Made by a program: the position numbers and the translations under genes. DNA of 64,000 nt from a virus: positions 107,235 to 171,234 of the IMG/VR virus record IMGVR_UViG_3300045988_061744, one strand, 5' to 3'. Each line of letters starts with the position of its first letter. The stretch's first letter is position 1. Shown here in pieces: positions 45,551 to 45,622 of the stretch. The notes beneath the pieces are model-generated. The model saw nothing but the letters and a program-made list of their open reading frames with translations, was not told where the DNA came from and ran no database searches.

Positions 45551-45622
45551 TGCCCTATGGTGTAATGGTCAGCACAGATGACTCTAAATCATTTAGTCTG
45601 GGTTCGAATCCTAGTAGGGCAA
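45551..45622 (+). tRNA. suppressor tRNA(CTA), tRNA-Gln-like; decodes UAG
   Basis: TGCCCTATGGTGTAATGGTCAGCACAGATGACTCTAAATCATTTAGTCTGGGTTCGAATCCTAGTAGGGCA. Anticodon loop CTCTAAA (anticodon CUA). U1-A72 and a D arm identical to tRNA-Gln(TTG) at 30394-30465. Confidence 0.75.

Follow-up and report, generated by a model that had tools for sequence, protein, structure and literature searches.

A probable glutamine-accepting amber suppressor tRNA(CUA) heading the rightward genes of a Zeta-type crAss-like phage

We describe here a transfer RNA (tRNA) gene with the amber anticodon CUA in a viral genome from IMG/VR (record IMGVR_UViG_3300045988_061744, positions 107,235 to 171,234), a stretch of 64,000 nucleotides that we refer to throughout as the window and in whose numbering all window coordinates are given. 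The gene lies close to the point at which the leftward (minus-strand) genes give way to rightward (plus-strand) genes, many of which carry in-frame TAG codons in their open reading frames (ORFs):

44248..44694, minus strand: last gene of the minus-strand block, 148 aa, free of TAG, kept in relatives
44695..45011, no strand: divergent intergenic region, with the strand switch and a change of sign in GC skew
45012..45413, plus strand: ORF1, 133 aa, three in-frame TAG, the first rightward gene, conserved (from the sequence and its relatives)
45406..45546, plus strand: ORF2, 46 aa, one in-frame TAG, overlapping the stop of ORF1 (from the sequence)
45551..45623, plus strand: tRNA(CUA), putative Gln-type amber suppressor (ARAGORN; Rfam; covariation in homologues)
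45640..49612, plus strand: TAG-poor rightward genes, 1 TAG in 961 codons (from the ORFs)
47090-47431, minus strand: ORF interrupting the TAG-poor rightward genes
47546-48460, plus strand: PD-(D/E)XK-type exonuclease
49010-49612, plus strand: GroES-like protein
49599..62849, plus strand: TAG-dense client genes, 120 TAG in 4230 codons, including tail genes
50995-53355, plus strand: large terminase (TerL), 15 TAG (PHROG)
53514-55724, plus strand: portal, 35 TAG (PHROG)

The strand switch (44694/45012) coincides with a change of sign in GC skew that is also its cumulative minimum, and a terminator-like hairpin (44228-44241) lies past the end of the last leftward gene. The tRNA(CUA) gene is found 540 nt within the plus-strand block, starting 4 nt past the TAA of ORF2 and followed after 16 nt by the next ORF. 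The initial annotation, made from the letters of the window, had placed this tRNA between the leftward genes and the recoded rightward genes, exactly at the switch of code and behind two small recoded ORFs. The two ORFs are indeed there, and the tRNA does head the rightward block, but it sits inside the plus strand with TAG-poor genes next to it, and the TAG-dense genes begin some 4 kb further on, from ~49.6 kb. ORF1 has no PHROG or Pfam match, and the same two databases assigned no function, aminoacyl-tRNA synthetase, or release factor to the small ORFs around the tRNA. An alignment of relatives shows an invariant motif, TTTTTTAACTT, at 44948-44958, ~50 nt upstream of ORF1; because it is present as a single copy in the window, it cannot link the tRNA operon to an early or a late promoter class.

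The tRNA(CUA) is a real tRNA under selection. ARAGORN, run on the 64-kb window, called a 73-nt tRNA with anticodon CTA at 45551-45623(+), one of 28 tRNA genes that it found (30 when Rfam matches are included), and the Rfam model RF00005 was matched in its entirety with 66.3 bits, compared to a gathering score of 29 (E = 3e-12). The acceptor stem comprises U1-A72, G2-C71, C3-G70, C4-G69, C5-G68, U6-A67, and A7-U66, the D stem begins at G10, the discriminator is A73, and CCA is not encoded. The anticodon loop reads CUCUAAA (C32-U33-C34-U35-A36-A37-A38), with the expected U33 and a purine at position 37. The CUA cloverleaf with A37 that had been read from the sequence is therefore borne out by the ARAGORN call and by the covariance-model score, as well as by covariation among its homologues.

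These homologues were collected through a TerL-based search of IMG/VR, which yielded 64 related loci (given here by their L-numbers), mostly on contigs of 183-192 kb. In the relatives checked at 89-98% TerL identity the plus-strand tRNA(CUA) is unchanged or differs by a single base (L059), and in more remote relatives the acceptor, anticodon, and T stems differ by compensatory changes. A pattern scan recovered the same type of tRNA in 66 viral contigs, corresponding to 21 distinct sequences, and exact copies occur in 26 IMG/VR contigs as well as in contigs of metagenome-assembled genomes (MAGs) labelled Bacteroides sp. and Clostridium sp. We then considered covariation in an alignment of 16 sequences, of which 15 are CUA homologues and one is the tRNA-Gln(UUG) of the phage itself. 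In this alignment, 99.4% of stem cells are paired, 14 of the 21 pairs have changed on both sides, and position 1 forms U1-A72 or U1-G72 in all 16 sequences; the covariation signal was reached by none of 500 shuffles, and slid registers also fell far below it. The CUCUAAA loop is constant in nearly all homologues. The invariance of the D arm carries no weight here, since the D arm belonged to the search pattern.

Two features of individual homologues are worth recording beside this comparison. In L073 (309-410), the homologue is longer by ~20 nt in the stretch that separates the anticodon stem from the T arm, and this could reflect a long variable arm or else a small insertion. In addition, suppressor-bearing contigs are filed in MAGs of different phyla, namely L185/L207 (DXLM01000001.1, 186,052 bp, 'Bacteroides sp.'), L213 ('Clostridium sp.'), L170 ('Tenericutes'), and L231 ('Acholeplasmataceae'), and these are most likely phage contigs that have been binned with bacteria.

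Turning to the codon that this tRNA would read, coverage by ORFs in the last three 4-kb bins of the window rises from 0.16, 0.10, and 0.30 to 1.0, 1.0, and 0.8 once TAG is treated as sense, and the restored genes include the large terminase and the portal, both of which match PHROG families, as do the restored tail proteins. The packaging, portal, and tail genes cannot be read unless UAG is sense, and the phage therefore needs UAG decoding. We aligned TerL and the portal with non-identical relatives and tallied the residues found at the window's TAG columns. For TerL, the relatives most often carry TAG (371), glutamine (190), glutamate (41), aspartate (19), or leucine (17) in these columns, and for the portal they most often carry TAG (903), glutamine (488), glutamate (42), threonine (30), or lysine (29); histidine accounts for no cell in TerL and six cells in the portal, and the background frequency of glutamine is 2-4%. 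Since the TAG columns alternate with glutamine at a level well separated from this background, and histidine is missing or nearly so, these alignments indicate that UAG is read as glutamine in this phage, which is what the initial annotation had held to be most likely.

Counting TAG, CAA, and CAG together as Gln-type codons, TAG makes up 120 of 219 (55%) in the late block (49599-62849) and 4 of 10 (40%) in the two ORFs upstream of the tRNA, compared to 1 of 29 (3%) in the plus-strand genes at 45640-49612 and 2 of 169 (1%) in the large minus-strand ORFs. UAG is thus the majority glutamine-type codon of the packaging, portal, and tail genes; the window calls for annotation with genetic code 15 (TAG = Gln), and the phage brings its own decoder for the codon that gives most of the glutamines of its virion and packaging genes.

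The body of the tRNA can be compared with that of the phage's own glutamine tRNA:

30393..30465, minus strand: ordinary tRNA-Gln(UUG) of the phage (ARAGORN; comparison)

Positions 5-19 (CTATGGTGTAATGGT) are the same in both genes, so that the sharing of sequence pointed out initially is confirmed, and the overall identity is 71%, with tRNA-Thr next at 68%. The further proposal, that the suppressor derives from this resident tRNA-Gln, is not sustained in the sense of a recent derivation, as the 71% identity is to be set against 82-86% over the full length to the genes of the crAss-like phages cr7_1, cr124_1, cr60_1, and cr53_1, of which the cr7_1 copy, when read, has the anticodon CUA. The anticodon loops differ as well (CUCUAAA in the suppressor, UUUUGGU in the tRNA-Gln), so that the suppressor would not be a one-step mutant of the resident gene. 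The run A36-A37-A38 is the motif recognized by MiaA (giving i6A37) and is found in the loop of strong Escherichia coli suppressors such as supF; by this analogy, the CUCUAAA loop suggests an adaptation that goes beyond a single anticodon mutation.

Among annotated phage records, most full-length BLAST matches to the tRNA(CUA) are labelled tRNA-Gln, and among the best of these are ordinary tRNA-Gln genes from phages of Mycobacterium, Streptomyces, and Pseudomonas. The tRNA-Gln(UUG) of Prevotellamassilia, Alloprevotella, and Equimonas (Bacteroidales MAG contigs; L215, L219, and L248) also has the U1-A72, A73, and D arm of the tRNA(CUA). These likenesses support a Gln-type body. The D arm, which had been put forward as an argument for glutamine, is not specific on its own: we looked for such specificity in bacterial genomes and found that, among the 116 matches listed for bacterial tRNAs with D arm TATGGTGTAATGGTNAGCAC, the majority (98) are Patescibacteria tRNA-His(GUG), with 14 tRNA-Gln and 4 CUA. 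As an observation in its own right, many Patescibacteria use TATGGTGTAATGGTNAGCAC as the D arm of their tRNA-His(GUG) (at least 98; L132-L251).

In E. coli, the identity set of glutaminyl-tRNA synthetase (GlnRS) comprises G2-C71, G3-C70, G10, G73, and U38, and the weak U1-A72 pair is an element for both GlnRS and GatCAB. Of these elements, U1-A72, G2-C71, and G10 are present in the tRNA(CUA), with U1-A72 and G10 among those named by the initial annotation, and C3-G70, A73, and A38 are unlike the E. coli set.

Taken together, we consider that the tRNA(CUA) is very probably a glutamine-accepting amber suppressor of a ~186 kb Zeta-type crAss-like gut phage. It would be excised from a polycistronic transcript, given that it begins 4 nt past one ORF and ends 16 nt before the next, and, because CCA is not encoded, CCA would be added by the host enzyme. 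Charging with glutamine would likewise fall to the host system, as U1-A72 and A73 match the tRNA-Gln of Bacteroidales. At more than 120 UAG codons, the charged tRNA would then have to beat release factor 1, and with 35 of these codons in the portal alone, suppression must be very efficient.

Several observations weigh against this interpretation. The minimum-energy fold of the lone tRNA(CUA) sequence is not a cloverleaf, and C3-G70, A73, and A38 depart from the E. coli GlnRS set. Among the matches listed, the Patescibacteria tRNA-His genes reach the same level of identity to the suppressor as bacterial tRNA-Gln (mean 0.70, maximum 0.78). No aminoacyl-tRNA synthetase, release factor, or other code-change gene was found among ~40 scanned proteins of the window, which represents a third of the genome, and the decoding load may fall on this gene or on the second tRNA(CUA) described below. 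We have set the lone-sequence fold aside in preference to the covariance model and the covariation, and we note that the E. coli GlnRS set may not apply here, since A73 is the discriminator of Bacteroidales tRNA-Gln.

The second tRNA(CUA), which the initial annotation did not mention, is encoded on the leftward strand together with two structured RNAs:

43081..43151, minus strand: second tRNA(CUA) (ARAGORN; Rfam 43.9 bits)
43181..43374, minus strand: RAGATH-14 RNA (Rfam 181 bits, gathering score 149.1)
41691-41759, minus strand: pistol self-cleaving ribozyme (63.3 bits, gathering score 34.5)

This tRNA lies 2.4 kb from the plus-strand gene and shares U1-A72, A73, and the CUCUAAA loop with it, but its body is different and unrelated (63% identity). 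A pattern scan found CUA forms of it in 19 IMG/VR contigs, all in the window's close clades. One orthologue, in L047 (116-186; L260 is the same contig), carries the anticodon CUG, one base away from CUA, together with a compensatory change of the acceptor pair C2-G71 to U2-A71, and scores 50.3 bits as a tRNA. This would tie the body of the minus-strand tRNA to tRNA-Gln(CUG), on the strength of a single contig with an A-C mismatch in its T stem. Another orthologue, in L274 (8624-8694), has the anticodon UUA and is thus of the ochre type, which would read both UAA and UAG. As judged from these orthologues, the anticodon of the minus-strand tRNA is evolutionarily labile. A second Gln-type tRNA(CUA) on the leftward strand could provide a parallel supply of suppressor.

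The RAGATH-14 RNA and the minus-strand tRNA(CUA) share a strand, with the RNA 30 nt away on the 5' side, and the pair recurs in this arrangement in L001 (953-1245) and L013 (1618-1890); our literature search on RAGATH-14 found no paper. At the equivalent site, L033 has a RAGATH-1 hammerhead, and L030 has RAGATH-14 and hammerhead matches below threshold. The pistol ribozyme is 1.3 kb further along the strand of the RAGATH-14 RNA and directly upstream of the TAG-bearing gene 40439-41629. The ~2.6 kb from 41630 to 44247 that hold the pistol ribozyme, the tRNA, and the RAGATH-14 RNA contain a sole long TAG-free minus-strand ORF (41759-42112).

In relatives down to 67% TerL identity, the order of elements is kept, in that the divergent gap is followed by a ~133-aa ORF, the tRNA(CUA), small TAG-free ORFs, and a variable insert, and then by the exonuclease, the GroES-like gene, TAG-dense genes, TerL, and the portal. 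The variable insert contains opposite-strand genes, often TAG-rich, and measures 2-4 kb in relatives. Going by these alignments, the slot of the tRNA, which comes second in the rightward block and beside the divergent gap and the GC-skew minimum, is conserved. The ORF1 homologues of L033 and L038 align over their full length. ORF1 contains no TAG in the distant relatives L033, L042, and L060 and three to four in the window's clades, and these are the only clades in which the pattern scan found a second tRNA(CUA); this correlation is weak, as it amounts phylogenetically to a single event. The distant relatives have no space for ORF2, with ORF1 of L033 ending 48 nt before the tRNA.

With the tRNA first, TAG-poor genes next, and TAG-dense genes last, this layout is compatible with an order of 'suppressor first, clients later', and is no proof of timing. 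The initial annotation went further and suggested a switch in which the tRNA at the junction is itself transcribed late and thereby gates the translation of the UAG-containing late genes. The position of the tRNA at the head of a rightward block that ends in the structural genes, the conservation of its slot, and the contrast between 1% TAG in the large leftward ORFs and 55% in the late genes all speak for such a switch, and a general model of this kind has been published (Borges et al.; Yutin et al.). We nevertheless regard it as rather unlikely. One difficulty is presented by the leftward genes, some of which contain TAG:

10202-10915, minus strand: HNH endonuclease, 9 TAG
27466-28110, minus strand: GIY-YIG endonuclease, 3 TAG
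37436-37822, minus strand: HNH endonuclease, 2 TAG
40439-41629, minus strand: 396-aa ORF, 6 in-frame TAG, no Pfam or PHROG match

The TAG-bearing genes of the otherwise TAG-free minus-strand block are mostly homing endonucleases, and, as they carry in-frame TAG, these mobile genes use the recoded code. The view that the leftward genes follow the standard code thus holds for the large ORFs but not for the three homing endonucleases and 40439-41629. TAG serves as the stop of 5 of the 70 minus-strand ORFs, and all three of these with a recorded extent read on through it, two of them reaching TAA or TGA within 1-7 codons and the third, an HNH endonuclease, crossing internal TAGs.

A second difficulty is the second tRNA(CUA), which lies on the leftward strand amid minus-strand genes and which, together with the TAG-bearing genes of that strand, argues against a clean early/late split by strand. 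Furthermore, ~4 kb of TAG-poor genes and the opposite-strand ORF 47090-47431 separate the plus-strand tRNA from the TAG-dense genes, and co-transcription of the tRNA with the late genes is doubtful because of this opposite-strand insert, which takes up 2-4 kb in relatives. The argument that recoded ORFs upstream imply late transcription of the tRNA fails in view of the second tRNA(CUA), which could supply suppression independently, and of the TAG-bearing leftward genes, and also because ORF1 is free of TAG in distant relatives, which makes the recoding upstream of the tRNA specific to a lineage. A promoter class can be assigned neither from motif TTTTTTAACTT nor from a sigma-70 promoter scan, which found 38 matches where 41 were expected and, being at chance level, says nothing about promoters of a Bacteroidota or crAss-type system. 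Finally, in the published model expression of the suppressor is early, not late (Borges et al.). We would add, speculatively, that the divergent junction and the GC-skew minimum, possibly a replication origin, lie between the two tRNA(CUA) genes, in which case the dosage of suppressor would be coupled to replication and could aid the timing of the switch.

The suppressor could also act mainly against the host, with UAG read-through harming host (defense) proteins and the decoding of phage genes being secondary, as has been proposed (PMC7886860, PMC12386605), and some Zeta crAss-like phages do keep a CUA tRNA without TAG recoding (PMC12386605). For the present phage this is improbable, as the 120 UAG within essential packaging, portal, and tail genes make decoding indispensable; TAG is also almost never the true stop of its genes, as noted for the minus-strand ORFs above. 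A side effect against the host may nonetheless occur.

Insertion of an amino acid other than glutamine, for instance histidine, lysine, glutamate, or tryptophan, is very improbable. The D arm is the same as that of Patescibacteria tRNA-His, certain BLAST matches are annotated as tRNA-Trp or tRNA-Arg, and glutamate is the second most common residue at the TAG columns, but glutamine exceeds the next residue ~5-fold in TerL and ~12-fold in the portal. The tRNA lacks the G-1/C73 signature of tRNA-His, having instead the U1-A72 and A73 of Bacteroidales tRNA-Gln, and on account of this acceptor end and of the TAG columns we rejected a histidine identity. The tryptophan and arginine identities were also rejected, as those matches are partial and weaker than the Gln matches, and in view of the TAG columns. 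That the gene is a decaying, non-functional relic, such as a site once targeted by integration or a signal for processing, is scarcely credible, since the lone-sequence fold that would favor this is outweighed by the high covariance-model score, the compensatory changes in every stem but the D stem (which was fixed by the search pattern), the nearly constant CUCUAAA loop, and the dependence of the genome on UAG decoding.

Returning to the tRNA(CUA) as a glutamine-accepting suppressor, its phage can be placed among known systems at the protein level; a megablast search of 44000-56000 against GenBank phages gave no match. The Zeta crAss-like group is characterized by genomes of 145-192 kb, many tRNAs, a crAss-type TerL and portal, and dense homing endonucleases and introns, and here we find relatives of 183-192 kb, 30 tRNA genes in the window, a crAss-type TerL, and three homing endonucleases. 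The phage would match this group in genome size and GC content, and also in how many tRNAs and endonucleases it carries, the Zeta crAss-like phages having ~176-189 kb, 23-27 tRNAs, a GC content near 35%, a CTA suppressor, and many homing endonucleases. Published work on these phages describes both CTA suppressors and an amber recoding of the late genes (PMC7886860, Yutin et al. 2021; PMC12386605, 2025 survey), with the recoding concentrated in structural and late genes as in the window, and we see no essential difference. Reading of TAG as glutamine has also reportedly been confirmed by proteomics in two crAss-like phages (PMC9523058). As amber suppressors and late-gene recoding are already published for Zeta phages, the finding is known in kind and, in effect, in lineage, and the tRNA(CUA) is an ordinary member of a published system that adds a documented example and no new principle. 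In the papers that we read, we came across no account of the conserved slot beside the divergent junction, of a second tRNA(CUA) gene on the other strand, or of the intron-split alleles to which we turn below. The slot, the second tRNA(CUA) beside RAGATH-14, and the split alleles bear on how the switch of code is staged.

Among the Suoliviridae, cr7_1, cr124_1, cr60_1, and cr53_1 have the 82-86% identical tRNA noted above, annotated as 'tRNA-Gln', with a CUCUAAA-type loop and U1 in cr7_1. Its neighborhood is likewise made up of a GroES-like chaperonin, small ORFs, and the tRNA, and then TerL and the portal. These phages differ in having genomes of ~100 kb, and the window's TerL is 26-29% identical to Crassvirales terminases, theirs included. 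In cr60_1, past the chaperonin and small ORFs, the homologous tRNA stands directly upstream of TerL and the portal, in contrast to the gap of 5.4 kb in the window.

Amber suppression from a glutamine tRNA also has a familiar counterpart in E. coli, where supE is a tRNA-Gln whose anticodon has changed from CUG to CUA, and supF has the loop CUCUAAA. The likeness lies in a CUA anticodon on a Gln-type body (supE), in the loop (supF), and in the CUG orthologue of the minus-strand tRNA in L047, one base away from CUA. The tRNAs described here differ in being encoded by a phage, for which they would be the major glutamine decoder of the late genes, and not weak suppressors of rare nonsense mutations.

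Regulation of late genes through recoding, together with a 'code change module', has been put forward as a hypothesis (Borges et al., bioRxiv 10.1101/2021.08.26.457843). Such a module joins a suppressor tRNA to an aminoacyl-tRNA synthetase, a release factor, or both, all written in standard code and placed immediately ahead of the recoded genes. The window resembles this module in that its recoded structural genes are preceded by a suppressor tRNA and the minus-strand genes are mostly compatible with the standard code. It departs from the module in that the TAG-dense genes begin 4 kb downstream, no aminoacyl-tRNA synthetase or release factor is found among the neighboring window proteins, and the ORFs just upstream of the tRNA contain TAG. 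Finally, the phAss-1 group has two or three tRNA-SUP-CTA genes, reads TAG as glutamine in TerL and virion genes, and has its suppressors assigned to Gln by tRNAscan-SE (PMC10607447); several amber suppressors per genome are thus common to both, and the lineage is unrelated, with predicted Bacillota hosts.

The relatives L023 and L030 are TAG-recoded and yield no tRNA(CUA) with default ARAGORN, yet the gene is present, split by ~1 kb. Such split genes are found in four relatives:

1885-2963 of L023: split tRNA(CUA) gene
3054-4095 of L030: split tRNA(CUA) gene
2811-3867 of L118: split tRNA(CUA) gene, in the same arrangement
1262-2327 of L282: split tRNA(CUA) gene, likewise arranged on a different tRNA body

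The break falls between U35 and A36, with the 5' half ending in C32-U33-C34-U35. The insertion consists of a leader of 14-21 nt, a conserved TAG-free ORF for an HNH endonuclease (265-272 aa), and a conserved structured tail of ~170 nt with G as its last base, immediately after which the 3' exon, AAA(U/A)C..., begins. The joined exons form a perfect cloverleaf with the CUCUAAA loop, and those of L023 are one base off the window's tRNA(CUA). L273, L284, and L286, in which the intron core is followed by a tRNA 3' half, are probably also split tRNA(CUA) genes, and L031 repeats the 3' junction of L030. For L023 and L030, ARAGORN offers an alternative tRNA-Lys(CUU), which we judged unlikely because it breaks the U/G rule for the splice sites and because the CUA tRNA of the window is the ortholog of these exons.

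A U precedes the 5' splice site and G is the last intron base in L023, L030, and L118. The core of the insertion contains a long-range 7-bp helix with four covarying pairs (from three sequences only) and a GACUA/UAGUC pairing that can form P7, and other blocks of it resemble the classical group I elements P, Q, R, and S. The insertion and its 3' core gave no match to Rfam Intron_gpI at E up to 10, and a BLAST search with the core against annotated phages returned unannotated records only. From these sequence features the insertion is likely a self-splicing, group-I-like homing intron. We further propose, tentatively and at something close to even chances, that the suppressor-tRNA locus serves as the homing site of a dedicated intron, with at least four distinct relatives affected.

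If self-splicing is true, the splicing of a tRNA has to come first in these phages, ahead of any reading of their late genes. Recoded phages without a visible suppressor tRNA are a gap repeatedly noted in the literature (Borges et al.; PMC7886860), and intron-split alleles offer a checkable reason why many TAG-recoded phage genomes seem to be without one. Part of this problem would then, if the intron reading is true, be an artefact of annotation.

A number of further features of the window deserve mention. The motif CCTTTAGTC is present in three copies where 0.78 would be expected, at 42131-42139(-), 44774-44782(-), and 53417-53425(+), every copy lying in sense orientation 20-90 nt ahead of the start of a gene, and the count is too small to interpret. 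The copy at 44774 is located within a block kept in relatives (GGGGGGGACTAAAG, plus strand). This motif may be a promoter or another regulatory element.

On the minus strand, a PRPP-synthase-like gene ends in TAG and an immediate TAA (4300-4305), a tandem stop that tolerates suppression; it adjoins a NAPRTase-family gene (5493-6707), which suggests that the two form a phage NAD-salvage pair. The same block encodes two SPFH/Band-7 proteins and an OmpA-like outer-membrane beta-barrel (7909-8736, 31011-32984, 9174-10190), consistent with a Gram-negative (Bacteroidota) host; the host is probably related to Prevotella or Bacteroides. It also includes a transfer-messenger RNA (21202-21757(-), 74.2 bits) of 556 nt, compared to a model of 374 positions, with a 269-nt unaligned insert in its middle. 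Two tRNA-like elements were found by Rfam and missed by ARAGORN, of which the one at 24404-24485(-) (53.1 bits) has normal acceptor, D, and T arms and an anticodon-stem loop of ~15 nt, and the one at 23468-23540(-) (39.5 bits) reads as tRNA-Ala(UGC).

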